A stretch of 64,000 bases of DNA from Escherichia phage vB_EcoM_VR20: sequence record NC_028894.1, one strand, 5' to 3'. Position 1 is the first letter of the stretch. Every line of letters starts with the position of its first letter. Made by a program: the position numbers and the translations under genes. The notes under the pieces were generated by a model that made no database searches, was not told where the DNA came from, and saw only the letters and a list, made by a program, of their open reading frames with translations. Shown piece by piece: positions 7,016 to 18,545 of the stretch.

Positions 7016-7834
7016 ATGCTTAAAGAACAACTCATTTCTGAAGCTCAGAATATCGATGCTTCCGTTGCTCTCGATAGTATTTTCGAATCAGTTAATTTGT
7101 CCCCGGAAGCGAAAGCTACCTTCGGCACTGTATTCGAAGCTACCGTCAAGCAACACGCCATCAAACTGGCAGAATCTCACATTCACGCCATCGCTGAAAA
7201 AGCTGAAGAAGAAGTCGAAAAGAATAAAGAAGAATCCGACGAAAAAGCAGAGAAAAAACTGAAAGAATCTGCAGCTAAATTCCTGGACCACGTTGCTAAA
7301 GAATGGCTCGCTGAAAATAAACTGGCTGTCGACCGCGGCATCAAAGCTGACCTGTTCGAATCCATGTTCACCGGCATGAAAGAACTGTTCGTTGAGCACA
7401 ACGTTGTTGTTCCGGAAGAATCTGTTGATGTTGTTGCAGAAATGCAGGAAGAACTGGCTGAACAGAAAGAAGAAACCGCTAGCCTGTTCGAAGAAGTTTC
7501 TAAGCGTGATGCTTATATCAATTATGTCCAACGTGAAGTTGCGTTGACTGAAGCAACTAAAGACCTGACTGAATCCCAAAAAGAAAAAGTTGGTTCTCTG
7601 GTAGAAGGCATGGAATACTCTGATGCATTCGGTACCAAAATTGGCGCTATCGTTGAAATGGTTAAAGGTCAGGTAGAACCCACCGACAAACCAATCACCG
7701 AAGCCGCTATAAATAAAAATGTAGACGATGCTGCGGCACTGAATTACATTTCAGAAGCAGTTGAAGAAAAAGGCGCCAAGCCTACCCTGTCCTTCGCGGA
7801 CTTGTCTGCTCTCGCAGCATCACGAATTTCTTAA
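7016..7834 (+). CDS. 22: major prohead scaffolding core protein
   Basis: 272 aa, acidic and coiled-coil-like; synteny. Confidence 0.9.
   Translation: MLKEQLISEAQNIDASVALDSIFESVNLSPEAKATFGTVFEATVKQHAIKLAESHIHAIAEKAEEEVEKNKEESDEKAEKKLKESAAKFLDHVAKEWLAENKLAVDRGIKADLFESMFTGMKELFVEHNVVVPEESVDVVAEMQEELAEQKEETASLFEEVSKRDAYINYVQREVALTEATKDLTESQKEKVGSLVEGMEYSDAFGTKIGAIVEMVKGQVEPTDKPITEAAINKNVDDAAALNYISEAVEEKGAKPTLSFADLSALAASRIS
7708..7715 (+). promoter_or_regulatory. late promoter TATAAATA inside gene 22, upstream of gene 23
   Basis: Exact box about 140 nt before the gene 23 ATG. Confidence 0.6.
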
Positions 7835-7855: not shown

Positions 7856-9415
7856 ATGAAAAAGAATGCATTAGTTCAAAAATGGTCCGCTCTGTTGGAA
7901 AACGAAGCTCTTCCGGAAATCGTTGGTGCTTCTAAACAAGCTATCATCGCTAAAATCTTTGAAAACCAGGAACAAGATATCCTGACCGCTCCAGAATACC
8001 GTGACGAAAAAATCTCCGAAGCATTTGGTTCTTTCCTGACCGAAGCTGAAATCGGTGGTGACCATGGTTATGATGCTACCAATATCGCTGCTGGCCAGAC
8101 CTCTGGTGCAGTAACTCAGATTGGGCCGGCAGTTATGGGTATGGTTCGTCGTGCTATCCCGCATCTGATTGCGTTTGATATTTGTGGCGTACAGCCTCTG
8201 AACAACCCGACTGGCCAGGTATTTGCCCTGCGTGCAGTTTACGGTAAAGACCCTGTCGCTGCTGGTGCTAAAGAAGCTTTCCACCCGATGTATGCTCCGA
8301 ACGCTATGTTCTCCGGTCAGGGCGCCGCTGAAGCTTTCGAACCTCTGGCTGCAAGCAAGCTGCTCACCGTTGGTAAAATTTATTCTCACTTCTTCGAAGC
8401 AACCGGTTCTGCACACTACCAGGCTGTTGAAGCTGTAACCGTTGATGCTGGCGCTACTGATGCTGCTAAACTTGACGCTGAAGTTACCAAACTGCTCGAA
8501 GCTGGTAAGCTGGCAGAAATCGCTGAAGGTATGGCTACCTCTATCGCCGAACTGCAGGAAGGCTTCAACGGTTCTCAGGATAACCCGTGGAACGAAATGG
8601 GCTTCCGCATCGATAAACAAGTTATCGAAGCTAAATCCCGCCAGCTGAAAGCAAGCTACTCTATCGAACTGGCACAGGACCTGCGCGCTGTTCACGGTAT
8701 GGACGCTGATGCCGAATTGAGTGGTATTCTGGCTACCGAAATTATGCTGGAAATCAACCGCGAAGTTATCGATTGGATTAACTACTCCGCACAGGTTGGT
8801 AAATCTGGTATGACCAACACCGTTGGCGCTAAAGCTGGTGTGTTCGACTTCCAGGACCCGATTGATATCCGTGGCGCTCGTTGGGCTGGTGAAAGCTTTA
8901 AAGCTTTACTGTTCCAGATTGACAAAGAAGCTGCTGAAATCGCTCGTCAGACTGGCCGTGGTGCAGGTAACTTCATCATCGCTTCCCGTAACGTAGTTAA
9001 CGTACTGGCTGCAGTTGATACCTCCGTATCTTATGCTGCTCAGGGTCTGGGTAAAGGTTTCAACGTTGACACCACTAAAGCTGTGTTCGCTGGTGTTCTG
9101 GGTGGCAAATACCGTGTATACATCGACCAGTATGCTCGCGCAGATTACTTCACCATCGGTTACAAAGGCGCTAACGAAATGGATGCTGGTATCTACTACG
9201 CACCATATGTTGCACTGACCCCGCTGCGTGGCTCTGACCCGAAAAACTTCCAGCCGGTTATGGGCTTTAAAACCCGTTACGGTATCGGTATTAACCCGTT
9301 CGCTGACCCGACAGCTCAGGCTCCGACCAAGCGTATTCAAAACGGCATGCCGGACATCGTTAACAGCCTCGGCTTGAACGGTTACTTCCGCCGCGTATAT
9401 GTTAAAGGAATTTAA
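7856..9415 (+). CDS. 23: major capsid protein
   Basis: 519 aa; T4 gp23-like; paralogous to the gene 24 products. Confidence 0.97.
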   Translation: MKKNALVQKWSALLENEALPEIVGASKQAIIAKIFENQEQDILTAPEYRDEKISEAFGSFLTEAEIGGDHGYDATNIAAGQTSGAVTQIGPAVMGMVRRAIPHLIAFDICGVQPLNNPTGQVFALRAVYGKDPVAAGAKEAFHPMYAPNAMFSGQGAAEAFEPLAASKLLTVGKIYSHFFEATGSAHYQAVEAVTVDAGATDAAKLDAEVTKLLEAGKLAEIAEGMATSIAELQEGFNGSQDNPWNEMGFRIDKQVIEAKSRQLKASYSIELAQDLRAVHGMDADAELSGILATEIMLEINREVIDWINYSAQVGKSGMTNTVGAKAGVFDFQDPIDIRGARWAGESFKALLFQIDKEAAEIARQTGRGAGNFIIASRNVVNVLAAVDTSVSYAAQGLGKGFNVDTTKAVFAGVLGGKYRVYIDQYARADYFTIGYKGANEMDAGIYYAPYVALTPLRGSDPKNFQPVMGFKTRYGIGINPFADPTAQAPTKRIQNGMPDIVNSLGLNGYFRRVYVKGI

Positions 9416-9438
9416 TCTTAGATTAAGTTAAATAAAAA

Positions 9439-9462
9439 GGGACCCTTGAGGTCCCTTTCTTG
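9439..9462. terminator. intrinsic terminator hairpin (GGGACC-loop-GGTCCC plus T-run), usable from both strands
   Basis: Seen between convergent gene 23 and the minus-strand small ORF. Confidence 0.7.
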
Positions 9463-9465
9463 TTT

Positions 9466-9747
9466 TCATACCATACCATTTAAATGAACTTCTACCCGGC
9501 GCTTGATGAGGTCTCTGAAATTAACACTGTTCTCTTGAAGTTTCAACCAGGTACCTGATTTGTCTTTGGTGTGAGTAGAATAATTACCATTCCACCAAAA
9601 ATCAGTATCATATGCTAAGTTTTCATATTTTTTAACTAGTTTGTTCAGAGCATTACCATTAACACCATTTGGGTATTTGTTGACCAATGCAACAACTTCA
9701 ATTTCCAGATTTTTAAAGGTATTCCGAAGGAAAGATACTTTGTTCAT
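9466..9747 (-). CDS. hypothetical early protein, 93 aa
   Basis: Minus-strand ORF with GGAG 6 nt before the ATG and an early promoter upstream; no known motif recognised. Confidence 0.5.
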   Translation of the reverse strand: MNKVSFLRNTFKNLEIEVVALVNKYPNGVNGNALNKLVKKYENLAYDTDFWWNGNYSTHTKDKSGTWLKLQENSVNFRDLIKRRVEVHLNGMV

Positions 9748-9782
9748 TTTAGACTCCATTGTTTGGTAACTCAGTATGAAAT

Positions 9783-9813
9783 CATTATGTCTTATCTTAA
9801 TCAGGTTGTAAAC
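9783..9813 (-). promoter_or_regulatory. early promoter (GTTTAC-N18-CATAAT), antisense to the late gene cluster
   Basis: Minus strand reads GTTTACAACC...CATAATGATTTCATACTGAGTTACC, the shared early leader. Confidence 0.55.
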
Positions 9814-9819
9814 AACTTT

Positions 9820-9827
9820 TATAAATA
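9820..9827 (+). promoter_or_regulatory. late promoter TATAAATA upstream of gene 24
   Basis: Exact box about 27 nt before the gene 24 ATG. Confidence 0.7.
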
Positions 9828-9853
9828 AAGTATATCACAAAAGGAAAGCGCAA

Positions 9854-11134
9854 ATGGCAAAGATTAACAAATTACTGCGCGAGTCAACTACCACTACCAG
9901 CAACTCCTTGGGCCGCCCGAATCTTGTTGCTTTGACCCGTGCTACAACCAAATTGATTTACCGCGATATCATCGCTGAACAACGTACTAACCAGCCAGTT
10001 GCGGCTCTGTACGGTGTTAAATATCTTACTCCTGATAATGAATTCAGTTTCCAGACTGGTGCTACTTATGGTGGTGAAGTTGGTTCAAAAGACCGTACAA
10101 CTATTCCGGAATTTACAACCCCAACTCAGGCCGTAGCTAAAGGTGGATACATTAAATTCCAGAATATCGTTTATAAAGCTCTGGTTGATAATCCATTTGC
10201 ATCGACCACAGAAACAGTATTATCTGATGTTCTACAGGAAGGTCTTGTTGCATTAACTATTCGTTTAGTTCCTGATGCTGCACACACCGAAAAATTTGAA
10301 GCTGGTGATGTTGAAATTAGTAACGCTGTATTCCAGGTTAATAAATGGAATGCTCCTGTTAAATCCCGTAAATTGAAAACTGCATTAACTGTTGAGCTTG
10401 CTCAGGATATGGAAGCAAATGGCTTTAATGCTCCTGCGTTCCTGGAAGACCTGCTTGCTACTATTATGGCAGATGAAATTAACAAGGATGTTCTTCAGTC
10501 TCTTATTACCGTTTCCAAGCGTTATAAAGTAACTGGCGTTTCTGACAATGGCACCATCGATTTAACATATGATGCAGCTCCAGAAGGTGCACGTAAACTG
10601 TACGAACTGGTTTGCGAAATGAACTCCGAAATTCAGAAAACTACATCTTATTCCGGTACCTTTGTTGTTGCCTCCAGCCGTGTTGCTGCTATGTTGGCTG
10701 GTTCTGGCTGGCTGAAGCATAAACCTGAAGACGAACAGTGGCTTCCTGAAACAGCGTACGGTTATTTGATTAATGGTCTTCCTGTATTCTGTGATGTTAA
10801 CAGTCCATTGGATTATGTAACCGTTGGCGTTAAAGAAAATTACGGTGGAAACGAAGTCGTAGGCTCAATCTTCTATGCTCCTTATACCGAAGGCCTGGAC
10901 TTAGATGATGAAGAACACGTAGGTGCGTTTAAGGTCATTGTGGACCCAGACAGCTTGCAGCCATCTATCTCCCTGATGGTTCGATATGCGCTTTCAGCTA
11001 ACCCTTACACCGTTGCTAAAGACGACAAAGAAGCTCGTATTATCGATGCAACTAATATGGATTTAATGGCCGGCCAGAGCAATATGTCTTATCTGCTCGG
11101 TGTTAAACTTCCGCCAATCATTTATGAGGCGTAA
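9854..11134 (+). CDS. 24: capsid vertex protein
   Basis: 426 aa; N-terminus MAKINKLLRESTTT matches T4 gp24 as recalled. Confidence 0.95.
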   Translation: MAKINKLLRESTTTTSNSLGRPNLVALTRATTKLIYRDIIAEQRTNQPVAALYGVKYLTPDNEFSFQTGATYGGEVGSKDRTTIPEFTTPTQAVAKGGYIKFQNIVYKALVDNPFASTTETVLSDVLQEGLVALTIRLVPDAAHTEKFEAGDVEISNAVFQVNKWNAPVKSRKLKTALTVELAQDMEANGFNAPAFLEDLLATIMADEINKDVLQSLITVSKRYKVTGVSDNGTIDLTYDAAPEGARKLYELVCEMNSEIQKTTSYSGTFVVASSRVAAMLAGSGWLKHKPEDEQWLPETAYGYLINGLPVFCDVNSPLDYVTVGVKENYGGNEVVGSIFYAPYTEGLDLDDEEHVGAFKVIVDPDSLQPSISLMVRYALSANPYTVAKDDKEARIIDATNMDLMAGQSNMSYLLGVKLPPIIYEA

Positions 11135-12418
11135 ATGCAAAAGATTAACGCACTAATTCACGAATCAACATTAACGGCGGCCAACCAGGTCGCCCGTCCT
11201 AATTTGCTTTCTTATACTCAGGCCACGAATAAACGAATTTTTAAAGCACTCGTGGCCGAACAGAAAACTACTCAGCCAGTTGCAGCGTTGTATGGTGTTC
11301 GTGTTCTGAACCCAGATGATAAAATGACATATCTTGGTGGAGCAACGTTTGCGGGTCAAATTGGTATGTTCGAGCGTAAGAATATTCCAGAATTTACAAA
11401 CAAAGACGAAGCTTATGCAGTCGGCGATATGTTCCAGTTTGAAAGTGTTGTGTTCAAAGTTTTGGAAGCATCACCATTCGCCGGGACTCTTGAAACTGAT
11501 TTGGGTGAAGTTATTTCTGAAGCCATTGCTGCTGGCCATATAAGAATGATGTCGGATGCGGCTTTCACTGATAAATTTGAACAAGGTCATCCTGAAATTG
11601 CTGAAGCCGGTTTCCGTATTGATAAATGGCAGACCGAAGTCAAATCCAGAAAGCTGAAAACTTCTTTAACGGTCGAGCTTGCACAGGACCTGGAAGCAAA
11701 CGGTTTCGATGCAACAGACTTCATTGATAATATTCTCGGTATTCAGATGGCAGAGGAAATTAATAAGGATGTACTGCAATCCCTTATTACTGTCAGTTCT
11801 CGCTTCAAGGTGCAAGGTGTTTCTGAAAAAGGTGTATTGAATCTAACTGACCCGAAATATGATAACGCTCAGGACCGTGCGCGAACCCTGTATTATTATA
11901 TGTGTGAAATGAACTCCGCAGTTCAACGTCAGACTTCGTTTGCTGGTACATATGCAGTCGCTTCTTCCCGGTGTGCAGCTATTTTAGCAGCTTCTGGTTG
12001 GGTTGAGAAAAAGGAAGACCAGGATGAATTAGCCTATGGCGTTCTGAAGAACGGTTTACCACTTTATGCAGATATGAATAGTCCATGTGATTATGTTATT
12101 GTTGGTGTAAATGCTGATATGGGTGAAGGTCAGACGGTCGCATCTTTGTATTATGCGCCTTATACGGAAGGACTTAGTGAAGTTGATGATGAGGGTGATA
12201 CCTCGGTCGGGGAATTCAAGGTTATTGTTGACCCTGAAAGCTTGCAGCCTACTGTTGCGCTATTAGCTCGTTATGCATTGACAGCGAACCCTTATACGGT
12301 TGCGAAAGATGATAAAGAAGCTCGCATTATTGATGGTGCTGATATGGATAAGATGGCCAACCAAAGCCAATTGAGTTCTTATCTTGGTGTTAAACTTCCA
12401 CCACTGGAAAAAGAATAA
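11135..12418 (+). CDS. second capsid vertex protein, tandem paralog of gene 24
   Basis: 427 aa; clearly homologous to the upstream gp24 over its whole length; starts right after the gene 24 stop with GAGG upstream. Confidence 0.9.
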   Translation: MQKINALIHESTLTAANQVARPNLLSYTQATNKRIFKALVAEQKTTQPVAALYGVRVLNPDDKMTYLGGATFAGQIGMFERKNIPEFTNKDEAYAVGDMFQFESVVFKVLEASPFAGTLETDLGEVISEAIAAGHIRMMSDAAFTDKFEQGHPEIAEAGFRIDKWQTEVKSRKLKTSLTVELAQDLEANGFDATDFIDNILGIQMAEEINKDVLQSLITVSSRFKVQGVSEKGVLNLTDPKYDNAQDRARTLYYYMCEMNSAVQRQTSFAGTYAVASSRCAAILAASGWVEKKEDQDELAYGVLKNGLPLYADMNSPCDYVIVGVNADMGEGQTVASLYYAPYTEGLSEVDDEGDTSVGEFKVIVDPESLQPTVALLARYALTANPYTVAKDDKEARIIDGADMDKMANQSQLSSYLGVKLPPLEKE

Positions 12419-12440
12419 GGGCCTTGCGGCCCTTTTTTAT
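12419..12440. terminator. terminator hairpin GGGCC-TTGC-GGCCC plus T-run
   Basis: Between convergent gp24 paralog and rnlB. Confidence 0.7.
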
Positions 12441-13444
12441 TCACTAATTAATGCAATCCAAACATGTCTTAATGTTTCTCTTACATTTGCGATGAGTTGC
12501 TTTTTAACTTCAACAGGATTTTCCGTCAGAGTCAATTCAAGGCCTTCGCGACCGGCTTCTTCCAGAATATCTTGGACCGTTAGCCCCATTACCTTTCCAA
12601 AATCCTTCGGTGATACTTCACCAATCTTACTGATAACATTATTGATGCGGTTAACAGTCACATAATCAGTGAAATTCCACAGTAAATCCATATCATTTTG
12701 GCTCAGAACCACTGCAGCCTTAATAGGCTTATCAGACTTTTTCTTTTCACTGAATTTAGAGTTCTTACATTTAATCGCTACGCGCTCGCCGTTAGGTAAC
12801 CATGCAGGAACATCAGGTTTTAATACAAATCCTTCAGCAGTGAATACTTTACCTTCCACCTTTGCATCAAAATCAGTGGTATTTGCTGTAGTCAAACCCG
12901 CGTTATCCACTGTAAAATTGTAATCAGGGACAACAGAATCCAGGTCATTAGGGAGCTTAATTAATTCTTCAAAACTACCTGTAGCCAGGCGCGGCGCAAC
13001 CTTAAACTTATGGATAATACAGAATGCTTCCATAAGGGTGTCAGTCAGGACAGATTCAGTCCCATCTTCTTTAGTAACGCGGATATCAAATACATAAAAA
13101 TCTTTATCACCGTAATCCACATTCTTCTGGATACCTGCCCCGGCAAACTCACCATAAATCTGGTATGCCTGGTAATTAATATCCTGCAAAAGTTTCTGCA
13201 CAGATTTAATAGAATCTGCATAGTTCTTTAATACAATTTCATAACCATAGAAATCTTCTGCAGGCAGGATAGGTCCAGTGCGTTTCGCACATGTCACATT
13301 GTCTTGTTCAATGATTAATGAAAAGTTGGTACCATGAATCTTCTCGCGAGCTACCCATTCACCGCTGGTGAAGCCTTGCAGGCGAATCTTTTCAATGAAC
13401 TTGTTGTTATAGTGATTTTCAAGGCTGTTGTATTTCTTAAACAT
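12437..13444 (-). CDS. rnlB: RNA ligase 2
   Basis: 335 aa; KIHGTN nucleotidyltransferase motif; close to T4 Rnl2. Confidence 0.95.
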
Positions 13445-13540
13445 AATCTCTCACTTTTGATGTTATAAATATCATTATAAATTAGACCCACTATACTTTC
13501 TTTCTCTGAAAGGAATTAATAGTCACAAAGGGGTCTAGAA

Positions 13541-13575
13541 CCATTATACCACAATTTTATTTTAAGCAAAAAGGT
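13541..13575 (-). promoter_or_regulatory. middle-promoter-like element (GCTTAAA-N12-TATAAT, then GGTTCTAGACCC)
   Basis: Minus strand upstream of rnlB; same downstream block as the uvsY promoter. Confidence 0.45.
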
Positions 13576-13838
13576 CAGAATTTTACATACAATGTTGGTT
13601 TGCCTTCTTGCCAATCATAATTCCAGGTAAATGATGTAAATTTTTCTGCTCGCAGAAATTCAGATATCTTTGCGCGGTTTCCTTCTTCATACTCTTTTTC
13701 AGAAACTGCCATATTAACAAAATCTTTGCCATTTTGAGCAGCGGCAACTGCCACTTTACGGAATATAGCAATAAAATCATTTGCAACTTTATCTTGTGAC
13801 TCTTTTGCGATTTGACGTAGTTCTTCTGCAAATGTCAT
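13575..13838 (-). CDS. hypothetical protein, 87 aa (24.2/24.3 region)
   Basis: ORF in the T4 24.2/24.3 position. Confidence 0.6.
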   Translation of the reverse strand: MTFAEELRQIAKESQDKVANDFIAIFRKVAVAAAQNGKDFVNMAVSEKEYEEGNRAKISEFLRAEKFTSFTWNYDWQEGKPTLYVKF

Positions 13839-14038
13839 TTCTTCACCTTTTTGTTATTCAAACGTTTACGATAAACAATCTTTTCTTTTGCTTTAAATTT
13901 AGCTTTGGCCTGTTCTACATCAACCCAGGCCTTTGCCATTTCTTTAGCAGTCCCGCCTAATACCTTGGCGATTTCAATAAATGTCATACCAGATTCATGC
14001 AGAAAATGTACTTTAACCTTATCCATAATGATTCTCAT
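13835..14038 (-). CDS. hypothetical small basic protein, 67 aa
   Basis: ORF with a lysine-rich C-terminus; coupled to the downstream ORF. Confidence 0.55.
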   Translation of the reverse strand: MRIIMDKVKVHFLHESGMTFIEIAKVLGGTAKEMAKAWVDVEQAKAKFKAKEKIVYRKRLNNKKVKK

Positions 14039-14130
14039 GTTGAGTTAGTGAAGCTATCTTAACATGGAATTTTTAACTTGTAAACAGGGTTTTTATGCCA
14101 GGCAACGTTTGTACAGTACCATAAAAACAA

Positions 14131-14151
14131 AGGGACCCGAAGGTCCCTTTT
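14131..14151 (-). terminator. terminator hairpin AGGGACC-CGAA-GGTCCCT plus T-run
   Basis: Immediately downstream of hoc on the minus strand. Confidence 0.7.
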
Positions 14152-14154
14152 TAA

Positions 14155-15288
14155 TTAATAAACGTAATCGTATATAATACCAGCTTCTAAAGCGGTGCGA
14201 TGAATAATTCGACCATTACGAGATTCTTGTACATCAACCTCTGGATAGTCGGTAATCATTTTTTGAAGGGTATATCGGTGCAAATAATACGGGCTATCTG
14301 GAGCATCAGTTTTCCAGTCTTGCCCAGCAAGAGTCATTTTCTGAATTTCGTCCATAACCCACCAACCACACCAGATATAAGCTGAATTACGAACTGGCAG
14401 CGGATGAACGTAAGGTAGTTCACCCTCTGGTTCAGGTGCGACTTTAGCGGTGACTGTTACATTACCAGTTTTTGTTACCGTCACTGGGTTATAATCAGTC
14501 GCCGAAACCACAACAGAAACTTCAATAACCTGTGAACCTTCGGCGCTTGTATCGATTACCAGAGTATCCGTGGTGCCATCTACAGGAGAACCATCTTTCT
14601 TCCAAGAATAAGCAAAAGTAGCTCCACTCGGCGCGCCGACTACATCCGCTTTAAAAGAAGCTGGAGTACCTTCAGAGACAGTAATAGAAGCAGGCGTTAA
14701 AGTAACAGAAACACCCGACATAGTTTTCTTAACAAACGTTACCTCAGCTCCTTTAGTTGCGGTGCCATTATTATAATCGGGTGCAGAAACAGTAACTTCG
14801 CAGTTCAATGTATAATTTGCTTCTGCTGATTCGGTAACAGTAATAGTTTCACCAGTTTGACCTGGGATTACGCTAGTGTTACGTTTCCAAACATAAGCAA
14901 TTGTTGCACCAGAAGGAGCACCTGTCACGTTAGCAGTAACAACTTGAGATTGCCCTATTTCTTTAGTAACAGAGGCCGGGTCTAAAGTCAGCGTGATTGC
15001 CGGCATTGTTTTATTCTGGATAGTTAAAGTTGTTTCAGCTTCAGCAGTTTCCGGTTCCCCGTCTGCCGGAGTGGTGGTTGCAACAACTTTAATAGTCTTA
15101 CTGCCTGCTGGACCAACAGCGACATAATCCATTGCAGCAGTCACAGAAGATTGAGGAACGCCATCAACGGTCCAGACAAATGATTCGGTACCTTCAGCTG
15201 CAGCGCCAGCGCCGGTTGCAGTGAAATTGGTTGTTGCTCCAATAACGGCCGTAGCCGCCAAAGGAGCAATAGTTACGGTATAAGCCAT
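14155..15288 (-). CDS. hoc: highly immunogenic outer capsid protein
   Basis: 377 aa; C-terminus PYVHPLP...CGWWVMDEIQKMT matches T4 Hoc. Confidence 0.95.
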   Translation of the reverse strand: MAYTVTIAPLAATAVIGATTNFTATGAGAAAEGTESFVWTVDGVPQSSVTAAMDYVAVGPAGSKTIKVVATTTPADGEPETAEAETTLTIQNKTMPAITLTLDPASVTKEIGQSQVVTANVTGAPSGATIAYVWKRNTSVIPGQTGETITVTESAEANYTLNCEVTVSAPDYNNGTATKGAEVTFVKKTMSGVSVTLTPASITVSEGTPASFKADVVGAPSGATFAYSWKKDGSPVDGTTDTLVIDTSAEGSQVIEVSVVVSATDYNPVTVTKTGNVTVTAKVAPEPEGELPYVHPLPVRNSAYIWCGWWVMDEIQKMTLAGQDWKTDAPDSPYYLHRYTLQKMITDYPEVDVQESRNGRIIHRTALEAGIIYDYVY

Positions 15289-15297
15289 AATAAACCC

Positions 15298-15963
15298 TTA
15301 TTTTAAAGTGACAAAAGATGAGTTACGAGTTTCTCGTACTAGAACAGACCCATTACGATTAATGTAATAAATCAAACTGAATAGAGTTTGGTGCGCGGTG
15401 GGATGTGGGAAAGCAGTTGGACGTTCTTTCCAATCTGGAGTCTCGGCAATCCACTGATAAATCCACCATGGAACAGTACAGAATCCAGGGTTCTTACCAA
15501 TAAGCATAAGATTTGGGCTAAAGTTTTTTGGCAGAGCAAATACAGGTTTTTCAGATTCGATAACCTTAGCAACAGCTGCTTCGAACTTTTCTTCGACAAA
15601 CGGAACGTCCTCTTCGACCACAACAACTGGTTCTTCGATTTCAACAACTTCAACCTTTGCTTCGGTTGGAGCATCAAATAAGAGCTTAGCTTCTTCTTTA
15701 GCTGACTCATCGCCATCAAATTTAGCACCTGACAATTCATCATCGGCATCGATAAGGTCAGTGATGCTCAAGCCTTCATTATCATCAGGCATAGGCATGT
15801 CAGCAAATGCTTTAAGTCCTGCTTCCAGGTCAGCCAACATATTATCAAAGGTTTTTGTTTTCTTAACATCAACACCAAGTGATGCTGCATATTCGGCTAA
15901 TTTTTCTTTGGCTTCTTTTTTCTCGAGGACACGAATTTCCTCAATGTAGTTCTTGTCAATCAT
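15298..15963 (-). CDS. inh: inhibitor of prohead protease
   Basis: 221 aa; T4 position between hoc and uvsW. Confidence 0.75.
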   Translation of the reverse strand: MIDKNYIEEIRVLEKKEAKEKLAEYAASLGVDVKKTKTFDNMLADLEAGLKAFADMPMPDDNEGLSITDLIDADDELSGAKFDGDESAKEEAKLLFDAPTEAKVEVVEIEEPVVVVEEDVPFVEEKFEAAVAKVIESEKPVFALPKNFSPNLMLIGKNPGFCTVPWWIYQWIAETPDWKERPTAFPHPTAHQTLFSLIYYINRNGSVLVRETRNSSFVTLK

Positions 15964-15981
15964 GATGAACCTCGGTTAGTG

Positions 15982-15989
15982 TATAAATA
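15982..15989 (+). promoter_or_regulatory. late promoter TATAAATA upstream of uvsW
   Basis: Exact box about 30 nt before the uvsW ATG. Confidence 0.65.
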
Positions 15990-16017
15990 TAGATATATTT
16001 ATTACCTTGGAATCATC

Positions 16018-17517
16018 ATGGATATTAAAATCAACTTTCTAAATTTTAGTCACGTGCATGTTGAATGTGAAGATGGAATCTTCTACGAACTCCGTGATTA
16101 CTTCAGCTTCGAAGCTGAAAACTATCGCTTCAATCCAAAGTTCAAGCAGGGAGTTTGGGACGGACGAATCCGCCTCCTGGATTACAATCGTAAATTACCA
16201 TACGGTTTGGTTAATCAAATTAAAAAGTTCGCTGACCAGTTTGGTTATTCATTCTGGATTGACCCGCAAATCACCGAGAAAGAAGAAATCTCTCGCGAAG
16301 AATTCGACAAATGGGTCGAGTCAAAAGAAATCTATTCAGGCAATACCAAGATAACGCCCCATTGGTATCAATCTGACGCCGTATATGATGGTCTGGTCAA
16401 CAGAAGAAAGATTCTGAACTTACCTACGTCTGCGGGTAAAAGCCTCATCCAGGCGCTTCTGGCGCGATATTATCTCGAGAACTATGAAGGCAAGGTTCTT
16501 ATCCTTGTTCCTACAACTGCCCTTGTCGACCAGATGATTAATGACTTTGTTGATTATCGGCTTTTCCCTCGTGCAGCTTGTCTGGGTATTCGTTCCGGGA
16601 CTAAACGCGATTCTGATGCGATGATTTATGTATCGACTTATCAGACGGCTGTAAAACAACCTAAAGAATGGTTTGAACAGTTTGGCCAGTTTATGAATGA
16701 CGAATGCCACATGGCTACAGGTAAATCGATTTCGACGGTTATCGAAGGCCTTACGAATTGCATGTTTAAATTTGGTTTGTCAGGTTCACTCCGTGATGGC
16801 AAAGCCAACCTTATGCAATATATGGGTCTGTTTGGTGATATCTTTAAACCAGTATCAACATCTAAATTAATGGAAGATGGCCAGGTTACTGACCTTAAAA
16901 TAAATAGTATTTTCCTTCGTTACCCTGACGAATTCACCGTTAAAATGAAAGGTAAAACTTATCAGGATGAAATCAAGGTAATTACAAAAGCTACACGCAG
17001 AAATAAATGGGTAACAAACCTTGCACTCAAGCTTTCTAAAAAAGATGAAAACGTCTTTTTGATGTTTAAGAATATCGAGCATGGTAAATCGATGTTTGAA
17101 ATGATTAAAGAAGCTGGTCATGAGAAAGTGTATTATGTTTCCGGGGAAGTTGATACCGAAACCCGTAATGCTCTGAAGGTCATGGCAGAGAATGGAAAGG
17201 GAATTATTGTTGTAGCTTCATATGGTGTATTCTCAACGGGGATTTCCGTTAAAAACCTCCATCATATTATTTTCGCTCACCCGGTCAAGTCAAAGGTAAT
17301 TGTACTCCAGACAATTGGCCGCGTGCTTCGAAAACATGAATCCAAATCGACCGCAAACGTGTGGGACATTGTGGATGATATGGGGGTCAAACCCAAATCA
17401 GCAAACGCTAAAAAGAAATATGTTCATATTAACTTTGCGCTTAAACATGCACTAGAACGTATTCAGCGGTATGCAGACGAAAAATTCAATTATGTAATTA
17501 AACAGGTGGAAATATAA
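16018..17517 (+). CDS. uvsW: RecG-like DNA/RNA helicase UvsW
   Basis: Start at MDIKINF as in T4 UvsW; GKS and DECH helicase motifs. Confidence 0.95.
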   Translation: MDIKINFLNFSHVHVECEDGIFYELRDYFSFEAENYRFNPKFKQGVWDGRIRLLDYNRKLPYGLVNQIKKFADQFGYSFWIDPQITEKEEISREEFDKWVESKEIYSGNTKITPHWYQSDAVYDGLVNRRKILNLPTSAGKSLIQALLARYYLENYEGKVLILVPTTALVDQMINDFVDYRLFPRAACLGIRSGTKRDSDAMIYVSTYQTAVKQPKEWFEQFGQFMNDECHMATGKSISTVIEGLTNCMFKFGLSGSLRDGKANLMQYMGLFGDIFKPVSTSKLMEDGQVTDLKINSIFLRYPDEFTVKMKGKTYQDEIKVITKATRRNKWVTNLALKLSKKDENVFLMFKNIEHGKSMFEMIKEAGHEKVYYVSGEVDTETRNALKVMAENGKGIIVVASYGVFSTGISVKNLHHIIFAHPVKSKVIVLQTIGRVLRKHESKSTANVWDIVDDMGVKPKSANAKKKYVHINFALKHALERIQRYADEKFNYVIKQVEI

Positions 17518-17744
17518 TGAAATCCTTCGAAGAAATTATGTACGAAGCATCAATTGAAGGCTTTATGGCTAAGATTGGTTCCTGTCAGACCATGGACGGT
17601 CTGAAGGAGTTGGAAGGCTATTATAAGAAACGCAGCAAAGAAGCTGAACTGAAAGATTCCGATGATATCAGTGTTCGCGATGCTCTTGCCGGTAAACGCG
17701 CCGAGCTTGAGGATATGGACGACGAAGAAGACGAAGATTTCTAA
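17517..17744 (+). CDS. uvsW.1: UvsW.1, small acidic protein
   Basis: 75 aa ORF coupled to uvsW. Confidence 0.75.
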   Translation: MKSFEEIMYEASIEGFMAKIGSCQTMDGLKELEGYYKKRSKEAELKDSDDISVRDALAGKRAELEDMDDEEDEDF

Positions 17745-17801
17745 ATAAAAAGGCCCCAACCAAAAGGAAGGGGCAAAACCAAAAATGGTTAACAACACTA
17801 G

Positions 17802-17969
17802 CTAAATTAAAAGTTGGGTCTCGTTCAGTTGCTCTTCTGTATTTTCCGTAACTGGCAAACTCTGAACATAATTATAACAGGCGCCCGGATGCACCGGACC
17901 TTGGTCTGTATCCACAACCAATGCAGAATCGATTGGAGTTTTACAGACAACACAAATCTTATCTGACAT
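17802..17969 (-). CDS. hypothetical Cys-containing small protein, 55 aa (uvsY.-2 position)
   Basis: Hand-translated minus ORF MSDKICVVCK... with GAGGAG before the ATG. Confidence 0.45.
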   Translation of the reverse strand: MSDKICVVCKTPIDSALVVDTDQGPVHPGACYNYVQSLPVTENTEEQLNETQLLI

Positions 17970-17997
17970 GATTGTCTCCTCAGTTAAACTTACATAT

Positions 17998-18114
17998 CTA
18001 TTTAGTGCTCTTCATAATAGCAGCACGAGCTTTCATCTCGTTAACAATTTCAGTTATTCGGTTTGCAGAGATAACCATCTCGTCGAGAATCTTACTAATA
18101 TTCTGTTTCATCAT
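17998..18114 (-). CDS. hypothetical small protein, 38 aa (uvsY.-1 position)
   Basis: Hand-translated ORF whose ATG overlaps the uvsY stop. Confidence 0.35.
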   Translation of the reverse strand: MMKQNISKILDEMVISANRITEIVNEMKARAAIMKSTK

Positions 18115-18545
18115 TTACCTGCCTCGAATTGTCTTATTTCTAACATATGTTTAAGTGCGAAACTTCGTGACTTAACACCATCTAATGCAGCGCTACAGAA
18201 GTCCTGGAGCAGTGCCCAATACTGAATTGAAGTATCAATCTTCAACACGCTTGAATCTGCGGCCATGACTGTTTTCAATTCTGACTTCTCGTATACATCC
18301 ATGCATACTTCTTCCCCTGGGTCACCCCTTCCCGTATAATGGTCTAGTCGTTTTTTCAGTGCAGTTTTCTTCTGAATCTCAAGACGCATTATTTCTTTCT
18401 TGCAGTTGGTATACAATCTCAACCATTTGCTATGCAACAAAACGTTGTTTTGTGTTTCATATTGAAGTTGTGTACCATCAATTTTTAAATCTGCATCTAA
18501 CTCGTCCTGAAATACTTCTAACTTATATTCAATCTCTTTTTTCAT
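18111..18545 (-). CDS. uvsY: recombination mediator UvsY
   Basis: C-terminus matches T4 UvsY; start set at MKKEIEY because the upstream in-frame ATG lies inside the promoter -10. Confidence 0.9.
   Translation of the reverse strand: MKKEIEYKLEVFQDELDADLKIDGTQLQYETQNNVLLHSKWLRLYTNCKKEIMRLEIQKKTALKKRLDHYTGRGDPGEEVCMDVYEKSELKTVMAADSSVLKIDTSIQYWALLQDFCSAALDGVKSRSFALKHMLEIRQFEAGK

Follow-up and report, generated by a model that had tools for sequence, protein, structure and literature searches.

Two gp24-type capsid vertex genes in tandem in Escherichia phage vB_EcoM_VR20: an already-annotated pair of apparently ancient paralogues

Why should a T4-like phage carry two genes for the capsid vertex protein gp24? 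The question is raised by Escherichia phage vB_EcoM_VR20 (sequence record NC_028894.1), of which we analysed a stretch of 64,000 nucleotides (the window). An initial annotation had described two full-length gp24-like open reading frames (ORFs) arranged head to tail, and the ORF list bears this out, with products of 426 and 427 residues and a TAA stop that abuts the next ATG:

9854..11134, plus strand: copy 1 ORF, 426 aa, ATG start, equal to VR20 'capsid vertex protein I' (AIZ02246.1)
11135..12418, plus strand: copy 2 ORF, 427 aa, ATG start, equal to VR20 'capsid vertex protein II' (AIZ02247.1)

The junction reads ...TATGAGGCG TAA ATG CAA...: the stop codon of copy 1 occupies 11132-11134, and the ATG of copy 2 opens on the very next base, 11135. 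A BLASTP alignment of the two products spans 428 columns, with 57% of them identical and 75% positive (E 8e-176, far beyond chance), and ANPYTVAKDDKEARIID is present in both, which upholds the description of the second product as diverged yet homologous, C-terminus included. We regard the tandem pair of gp24-type vertex genes as a confirmed, real feature. The gene order at the locus is gp22, gp23, a small reverse ORF, copy 1, copy 2 and rnlB; the pair are late genes that follow gene 23 closely within the head-gene cluster and have a late promoter of sequence TATAAATA. T4 has only a single copy of gene 24, flanked by segD and rnlB.

To judge by homology, copy 1 and copy 2 both belong to the T4 gp24 capsid vertex protein family, and both are predicted to be full-length, gp24-type HK97-fold subunits. 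Their homology to T4 gp24 (PDB 1YUE, 5VF3, 7VS5) extends over the full length, at 70.0% identity for copy 1 and 56.5% for copy 2; the first ORF is indeed the close T4 match, and copy 1 is the canonical gp24. For copy 2, the match to the T4 gp24 crystal structure (1YUE) reaches an E value of 2e-148, with residues 1-424 aligned to 1-423, whereas the gp23 chains in the PDB match it at E ~1e-12 only, over residues 156-393. Alignment places both copies nearer to gp24 (56-70% identity) than to the phage's own gp23 (~29%), the latter being 519 aa long against their 426 and 427; the long propeptide of gp23 is absent from both. All three proteins match Pfam PF07068 (the Gp23 family), copy 1 and copy 2 each at ~327 bits; both copies also match PHROG 138, and NCBIfam holds no model that matches either.

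The gene for gp24 is itself descended from a duplicate of the gene for the major capsid protein, gp23, and the VR20 pair resembles that split, in that both cases involve duplication and specialisation within one HK97-fold capsid family and one gene cluster. The two cases differ in depth: gp23 and gp24 share ~21-29% identity and have distinct roles (in hexamers and pentamers, respectively), whereas the gp24 copies are 57% identical, and any division of labour between them is hypothetical.

Another point of resemblance to T4 lies in the N-terminal sequence. The propeptide of T4 gp24 is cut after Glu10 by the gp21 prohead protease. As a comparison of cleavage context in sequence only, the N-termini read MAKINKLLRE/ST in copy 1, MQKINALIHE/ST in copy 2 and MAKINELLRE/ST in T4; Glu10-Ser11 is kept in both copies, the first 10 residues of which are encoded by nucleotides 9854-9883 and 11135-11164, respectively. 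In T4, it is 10 N-terminal residues that are removed from gp24 (PMC9546572). Together with this propeptide context, the pair has in common with T4 gp24 its length, its position after gene 23 and its late promoter. Two differences stand out: T4 uses one gene for all 11 vertices, where VR20 has a second, deeply diverged paralogue downstream; and the N-terminal ~80 residues of copy 2 are unlike those of every single-copy Tevenvirinae gp24 that we examined.

The novelty that was implied for this arrangement does not survive comparison with existing records. The window proteins are identical in sequence to the two deposited for VR20, the locus corresponds, by its sequence, to the already-annotated Gaprivervirus pair 'capsid vertex protein I / II', and tandem gp24 genes are annotated as standard across Gaprivervirus, Dhakavirus and Gelderlandvirus. 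Annotated pairs are found in JS98 (24a/24b), VR7 (24(1)/24(2)), VR5, VR26, Bp7, IME281 and Salmonella phage STP4-a; the gene pair is therefore already known, from GenBank entries (JS98, VR7, VR20) that are more than 10 years old. A gene 24 duplication in JS98 is reportedly mentioned in the abstract of Chibani-Chennoufi et al. 2004. Both gp24 genes are now named routinely by automated pipelines.

Copy 1 is 95.5% identical to its VR7 counterpart and 89.9% identical to that of JS98, the corresponding values for copy 2 being 98.8% and 95.3%. The orthology is one-to-one: each copy forms a clade with its counterparts in VR7, JS98, VR5, STP4-a and kv_tblp2. In these relatives the canonical copy comes first, and stop and start abut or overlap; the VR7 and JS98 pairs also have the same gene order (23, small reverse ORF, 24-1, 24-2, rnlB), abutting junction and late promoter as the window. 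VR7 and VR5 differ in having a collagen-like gene and a second Hoc-like gene downstream, both of which the window lacks. More widely, a copy-2-type gene occurs in about 105 of the 1450 phage records with a gp24 match. We inspected 25 loci with a copy 2: that of the window, those of 5 isolates, 15 from IMG/VR and 4 on Logan contigs, these last with identities down to 66-69%. In all 25 copy 1 lies directly upstream of copy 2, although in one of them it is cut off by the contig end.

The signals that surround the two genes are best read, from their sequence, as those of a coupled bicistron with one late promoter, an embedded Shine-Dalgarno motif and one terminator:

9436..9460, both strands: putative bidirectional intrinsic terminator that separates gene 23 from the minus-strand ORF, with stem-loops on both strands
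9820..9827, plus strand: T4-type late promoter TATAAATA, located 26 nt ahead of the copy 1 ATG
9841..9848, plus strand: copy 1 Shine-Dalgarno AAGGAAAG, by sequence, kept in relatives
11126..11129, plus strand: copy 2 Shine-Dalgarno GAGG, within the last codons of copy 1 (TAT GAG GCG), 5 nt before the ATG
12417..12440, both strands: putative bidirectional intrinsic terminator, AAGGGCCTTGCGGCCCTT then TTTTTT, common to copies 1 and 2 and to rnlB, which converges on them

Since the gene 23 transcript would end at the first of these terminators, gene 24 needs a promoter of its own. The TATAAATA at 9820..9827 is the only exact late-promoter match ahead of the terminator at 12417: the window holds 20 matches to the motif where 4.2 would be expected, and none of them lies on the plus strand from 9828 to 13463. 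It stands at the identical position in VR7, JS98, VR5, STP4-a, kv_tblp2 and T4. No internal late promoter for copy 2 was found within either copy, in the window or in five relatives, and a sigma-70 scan yielded nothing that exceeded shuffle expectation. We propose that a bicistronic late mRNA would be driven from 9820-9827 and would end at the terminator at 12417-12434, and that copy 2 would be translated from the Shine-Dalgarno motif inside the last codons of copy 1; the TAA stop that abuts the ATG points to translational coupling. The copy 2 Shine-Dalgarno is conserved in VR7, JS98 and VR5, where TAA and ATG also abut, and in STP4-a, where they overlap by 1 nt; in kv_tblp2 the overlap is 4 nt (ATGA), and the upstream motif is just the weaker GTGAG.

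How old is the pair? Within a genome, copy 1 and copy 2 are separated by a dN of 0.37 and a pS of 0.65-0.71 (saturated); their nucleotide identity is 62%. In our gp24 trees, all of which are neighbour-joining, the copy 2 clade has 100% bootstrap support and a long stem and falls outside copy 1 and the single-copy T4-type gp24, its deep placement being uncertain; the branching within copy 1 is mirrored by that within copy 2. With synonymous sites saturated and copy 2 forming its own deep clade, this is not a recent copy: the original wording, 'tandem duplication', holds in that there are two intact gp24 homologues in tandem, and needs qualifying as to age. The two genes are most readily described as ancient paralogues that have been inherited together. 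We also considered gene conversion, or concerted evolution, as the source of the C-terminal block that the copies have in common. Codon identity at conserved residues is flat (0.3-0.56) along the gene, and the longest common exact word is 14 nt; we therefore reject conversion between the copies.

Strong purifying selection acts on both genes: copy 1 has a dN/dS of 0.04-0.15 and copy 2 one of 0.02-0.07. The latter copy is intact in 25 of the 25 loci, across lineages in which synonymous sites are saturated, and between genera it is conserved as well as copy 1 or better (80.5% versus 73.3%, window versus kv_tblp2). These observations bear on the idea that copy 2 is a redundant spare, either decaying or merely tolerated. 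It is true that T4 gp24 can be bypassed by single gp23 mutations (PMC9546572), and hence that vertex genes are not absolutely indispensable; nonetheless, the intactness of copy 2, its conservation between genera and above all its dN/dS effectively refute a spare copy or a pseudogene, and we give this reading almost no credence.

The two copies are also asymmetric. There are 25 lineage-specific fixed differences in copy 2 and one in copy 1; the copy-2-specific divergence is concentrated in residues 1-79, and nine of the 25 substitutions fall in T4 residues 25-57. Measured against gp23, the codons of copy 2 are less well adapted than those of copy 1 in every one of 10 phages; the gap is modest (about 0.02-0.11 CAI units), and these phages are not independent lineages.

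We next turn to where copy 2 came from. Instead of being duplicated in place, it may have been acquired through recombination with a distant T4-like phage of deep-branching ancestry, after which the pair spread from one phage lineage to another as a cassette; we hold this only tentatively, as something that could well not have happened. Consistent with capture, the copy 2 clade lies outside the clade of copy 1 and T4-type gp24, copy 2 is about as distant from copy 1 (57%) as is the gp24 of Acinetobacter phage ZZ1 (56-59%), and outgroups show the copy 2 state at 5-8 of the 25 diagnostic sites. Moreover, the gp23 and gp24 trees conflict: STP4-a gp23 is sister to that of the single-copy phage Moon (100% support), whereas copy 1 of STP4-a joins its counterparts from the other two-copy phages and not Moon gp24. 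Homing endonucleases in the gene 23-24 spacer of T4 (segD) and P-KP2 are a further point in favour. Against capture, we found no genome or contig in which a copy-2-type gene is the sole gp24, and hence no known donor lineage; in addition, the copy 2 subtree repeats the branching of the copy 1 subtree as far down as the FBB1-like group, a pattern that one old duplication with at least two losses fits equally well.

A related proposal is that the single gp24 of Jiaodavirus is a copy 1/copy 2 recombinant. Sliding windows and segment trees first suggested this, the N-terminus grouping with copy 1 (84% bootstrap) and the middle with copy 2 (60%). The case was then weakened: the same pattern appears in the gp24 of Tegunavirus, Serratia X20 and Acinetobacter phages, and retention of an ancestral insertion domain fits equally well.

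What, then, might the two products do in the capsid? The account that we consider probable is that this annotated, ancient gp24 paralogue pair encodes two functional vertex subunits, of which copy 2 is specialised and probably minor. Both products would be synthesised late, trimmed by gp21 and incorporated into the prolate head at its non-portal vertices; copy 1 would be the canonical, major vertex subunit, and copy 2 a specialised one that is probably less abundant. The divergent N-terminal arm of copy 2 (residues about 1-79) may alter how it touches the scaffold or the capsomers around it. As to the suggestion that a second vertex protein could mean alternative or mixed pentameric vertices, the sequence neither supports nor excludes it; what the sequence does show is that both copies are kept and co-expressed.

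The prolate head has 11 non-portal vertices: one apical, a distal ring of five and a portal-proximal ring of five. The paralogues could be deployed as separate homopentamers at different classes of these vertices, with the copy 2 arm directing assembly at one class. We rate this division of labour as unlikely, albeit worth weighing, since several observations are in accord with it: the substitutions specific to copy 2 are concentrated in its first ~80 residues, a region that by homology to gp23 and HK97 is the arm that contacts neighbouring capsomers or the scaffold (PMC9546572); copy 2 always comes with a copy 1 and was never found alone; and its consistently lower codon adaptation fits a minority species. 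On the other hand, a coupled bicistron suggests similar, not 10:1, synthesis of the two products, and in T4 one protein fills all three vertex classes without significant conformational variation. Indeed, all 55 gp24 subunits of T4 have nearly the same conformation (PMC9546572), which implies that one vertex protein is structurally enough and that nothing forces a second, a point that weighs on our preferred account as well. A narrower version, in which copy 2 is dedicated through its N-terminal arm to one vertex class (apical or one ring) and the single gene 24 of T4 is a secondary loss and not the ancestral state, is in our estimation somewhat less likely again.

Copy 2 might instead not be a vertex subunit of the virion at all: it could act in assembly only, for instance as a transient partner of vertex or scaffold, or it could be a decoy for a host defence that senses capsid proteins. 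Its lower codon adaptation and remodelled N-terminus are indirect points in favour of such a role. Yet in copy 2 the gp24 architecture is complete from end to end, with the insertion domain region and the C-terminal block that is also found in copy 1, and the protease-site context is kept; the dN/dS of copy 2, at or below that of copy 1, is as expected for a lattice-constrained structural protein; we consider a non-virion role quite improbable. In the full-text literature that could be searched we found neither proteomic, genetic nor cryo-EM work on a two-gp24 phage, nor a paper on the function, virion presence or structure of the second gp24; this counts against our preferred account and against position-specific vertices, and leaves some room for a protein absent from virions. 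Our preferred account remains that both copies are functional vertex subunits.

As a discovery, the gene pair carries little weight, being already in GenBank. The interest lies in why some T4-like phages have held on to two vertex proteins for so long, when T4 builds 11 vertices from one and gp24 can even be bypassed (PMC9546572). If the two products sit at different vertices, they would give natural access to the question of how vertices are distinguished in a prolate capsid, and phage engineering would gain an additional display site of low copy number. Finally, the evolutionary pattern suggests that the single gene 24 of T4 may reflect loss of a second gene, which, if true, would slightly change how the model phage should be read.

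The window carries two intact, coupled gp24-type genes in the same orientation, copy 1 and copy 2, in a setting that is that of the T4 head cluster, although T4 has a single gene 24 at this place. The initial annotation had described two full-length, head-to-tail gp24-like ORFs with a shared C-terminal block, as against one such gene in T4, and all of this is present in the window. The features of the region are:

7016-7834, gp22, head cluster, upstream of gp23
7856-9415, gp23, head cluster, upstream of the gp24 pair
9436-9460, bidirectional terminator, at the end of the gene 23 transcript and also behind the 97-aa reverse ORF
9466-9759, minus strand, 97-aa ORF between gp23 and the gp24 pair
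9820-9827, T4 late-promoter consensus TATAAATA, 26 nt before copy 1
9854-11134, plus strand, copy 1, gp24-type, 426 aa (ORF list)
11126-11129, Shine-Dalgarno GAGG of copy 2, within the final codons of copy 1
11135-12418, plus strand, copy 2, gp24-type, 427 aa (ORF list)
12417-12434, bidirectional terminator followed by a T run, at the end of the gp24 pair and common to rnlB
12437-13444, rnlB, convergent to the gp24 pair
beyond rnlB, homologues of the VR7/JS98 genes 24.2 and 24.3, then a Hoc-like gene (named by position and size against the VR7/JS98 annotation)

The two products align over their full length with 57% identity and 75% positives (BLASTP, E 8e-176); each scores ~327 bits to Pfam PF07068 (Gp23 family) and matches PHROG 138, and both contain the block ANPYTVAKDDKEARIID. 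The match of the copy 2 product to 1YUE, the crystal structure of T4 gp24, likewise covers the whole length (E 2e-148). The identification of both genes as gp24-type is correct. At their junction, TAT GAG GCG TAA ATG, the copy 2 ATG adjoins the copy 1 stop. The late-promoter consensus occurs 20 times in the window (4.2 expected), and is found within neither copy in the window and five relatives. Taken together, the promoter, the terminators, the embedded Shine-Dalgarno and the adjoining stop and start point to one translationally coupled late bicistron, a layout kept, with stop and start abutting or overlapping, in VR7, JS98, VR5, STP4-a and kv_tblp2.

The 97-aa reverse ORF occupies the slot that in T4 belongs to the homing endonuclease segD. 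It has homologues in VR7 (VR7ORF190c) and JS98 (orf173), matches PHROG 6003 (function unknown; E 6e-49) and no Pfam or NCBIfam family, is low in GC (34%), and is preceded by a putative sigma-70-like promoter (TTTACA-17-CATAAT, 10/12; flank 9784-9812).

The tandem pair is a known feature that is annotated routinely, so the novelty implied by the initial annotation does not hold. Among 50,697 phage records searched with positions 9400-12900 (megablast), 62 cover at least 80% of the stretch, led by Escherichia phage P896 (95.8%), with VR26, VR25 and VR7 at 91-94% and JS98, Bp7, VR5 and IME281 at ~82%. Nearly all annotated matches have two vertex genes under the matched stretch, named ‘capsid vertex protein I/II’ (VR26, VR25, VR5, CJ20), ‘24(1)/24(2)’ (VR7) or ‘24a/24b’ (JS98). 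By exact-sequence look-up, the products of copy 1 and copy 2 are identical to capsid vertex proteins I (AIZ02246.1/YP_009207367.1) and II (AIZ02247.1/YP_009207368.1) of the Gaprivervirus Escherichia phage vB_EcoM_VR20 itself. We found no experimental work on the copy 2 product in the searchable literature.

A tblastn search with copy 2 matched 1450 phage records (matching places outnumber records by 125), ~105 of which have a copy-2-type gene at ≥80% identity. Beyond Gaprivervirus and Dhakavirus, the pair occurs in Gelderlandvirus (Salmonella phage STP4-a) and the unclassified Klebsiella phage kv_tblp2; T4, RB69, Moon, CC31, PEi20, Jiaodavirus, ZZ1, Krischvirus, Aeromonas phage 31 and Slopekvirus are the single-copy lineages among those examined. 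In IMG/VR, a copy-1-type gene lies directly upstream of the copy-2-type gene in 15/15 loci, both intact. Deeper copy-2-like proteins (66-69% identity) emerged from a collection of 5.8 billion proteins: Erwinia phage FBB1 has one together with a second, copy-1-like gp24, and four metagenomic contigs, for three such proteins, carry gp23, copy-1-like and copy-2-like genes with overlapping stop and start. We inspected 25 loci in all: the window, five isolates, 15 from IMG/VR and four Logan contigs. Copy 2 comes second in every one and never occurs alone.

We also noted a collagen-repeat protein (GPxG repeats) in several two-gp24 phages and contigs. In VR7 (L001 7768-9383), VR5 (L016 6593-8722) and the FBB1-like contig L032 (2676-4506) a second Hoc-like protein comes after it, with a GWWV.DEI...ESRNG capsid-binding tail, as read from the annotation notes of VR7 and VR5 and from the translation of L032. 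This module is a possible accessory cassette for head decoration. In L032 it comes immediately after copy 2, and in VR7 and VR5 it follows gene 24.3; contigs L033 (4845-6382) and L034 have two uncharacterised genes in its place. The module is absent from the window (13400-18500), JS98 and STP4-a, so its link with copy 2 is not a strict one. Separately, the single gp24 of Klebsiella phage KPV15 (NC_055715; L006 3801-5080) is annotated in the RefSeq record as 540 and 663 nt fragments, and its gp22 is split too; since both genes are whole in the close relative vB_VIPKPNUMC01, sequencing frameshifts are probably the cause, not biology.

Copy 2 proteins share 80-99% identity across genera and 54-58% with any copy 1 or T4-type single-copy Tevenvirinae gp24, and are about as distant from the gp24 of Acinetobacter phage ZZ1; the exception is Jiaodavirus gp24, at 64%. 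The single-copy gp24s of Jiaodavirus (L007 3801-5081), Tegunavirus (P0025, P0026) and Serratia phage X20 (P0083) are copy-1-like over residues 1-79 and nearer copy 2 over residues ~103-174 (the insertion domain); in segment trees the Jiaodavirus N-terminus joins copy 1 (84% bootstrap) and the middle joins copy 2 (60%). These proteins may be either copy 1/copy 2 recombinants or keepers of an ancestral insertion domain.

In neighbour-joining trees, copy 2 forms a long-stemmed clade (100% bootstrap) outside the clade that unites copy 1 with the gp24s of T4, RB69, Moon, CC31 and PEi20, and the order of branching within copy 1 is mirrored within copy 2. Adding FBB1-like sequences leaves the copy 2 clade at 100%, makes FBB1-group copy 1 sister (84%) to all else on the non-copy-2 side, and nests single-copy T4-type gp24s between it and other copy 1 genes. 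All are distance trees, and the deep position that they give copy 2 is tentative. Their pattern would follow from one old duplication and at least two losses, in which case the single gene 24 of T4 would be a derived state, the outcome of a loss. Transfer of a cassette, instead of duplication and losses, is a viable alternative: homing endonucleases lie in the gene 23-24 spacer of T4 and P-KP2, and the gp23 tree conflicts with the gp24 tree, pairing STP4-a (L004) with single-copy Moon (L009) at 100%, whereas STP4-a copy 1 joins that of other two-copy phages (Dhakavirus, Gaprivervirus, IMG26) and Moon gp24 joins T4 and RB69. This conflict suggests a recombination breakpoint in the spacer.

Within one genome the copies differ by dN 0.37 and a saturated pS of 0.65-0.71 (Nei-Gojobori); comparison of orthologues gives dN/dS values of 0.04-0.15 (copy 1) and 0.02-0.07 (copy 2). 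Both copies are under strong purifying selection and have been co-inherited over a very long time; that copy 2 is redundant or decaying is effectively excluded. Concerted evolution was ruled out by 62% nucleotide identity between the copies, a longest shared exact word of 14 nt and a flat profile along the gene of codon identity where the amino acid is conserved (0.3-0.56), so the C-terminal block is kept by protein-level selection. As a separate observation, synonymous divergence between close relatives is 3-5x lower in gp23 (7856-9415) than in either gp24 copy (9854-12418), with dS for the window of 0.08 versus 0.33 and 0.37 against VR7, and 0.46 versus 1.40 and 1.59 against JS98; codon bias is much stronger in gp23 (ENC 33 versus 42-45; GC 0.50 versus 0.43).

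The copies are also asymmetric. Counted over sites that do not vary in the other group, lineage-specific fixed differences number 25 in copy 2, nine of which fall within T4 residues 25-57, and one in copy 1. Windowed comparison over residues 1-79 puts each of the single-copy Tevenvirinae gp24s 15-30 points nearer copy 1 than copy 2; the derived part of copy 2 is thus the N-terminal arm together with the first insertion-domain linker. On sequence grounds, copy 1 is the conventional gp24. Both keep the Glu10-Ser11 context of the gp21 cut (LLRE/S in copy 1, LIHE/S in copy 2); T4 gp24 loses 10 residues (PMC9546572). In 10/10 phages copy 1 exceeds copy 2 in codon adaptation relative to gp23 of the same phage, with copy 1 resembling single-copy gp24 genes, a weak hint that copy 2 may be the less abundant product.

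We propose that both products would be made late, processed by gp21 and built into non-portal vertices, with copy 1 as the main subunit and copy 2 as a specialised, probably minor one whose changed N-terminal arm may alter contacts with adjacent gp23 capsomers or scaffold. A non-virion role for copy 2 has little support, given its fully conserved gp24 fold and very low dN/dS. The two may form pentamers of their own, at particular vertices or distributed at random, or mixed pentamers; it is improbable that the copies are vertex-class-specific paralogues. T4 speaks against a structural need for a second vertex protein: its 55 gp24 subunits all share a similar conformation, and single gp23 mutations can bypass gp24 (PMC9546572). 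To the routinely annotated pair, our analysis adds that it is ancient, obligatorily linked and asymmetric, and that its range takes in Gelderlandvirus, a Klebsiella phage and genomes like that of Erwinia phage FBB1.
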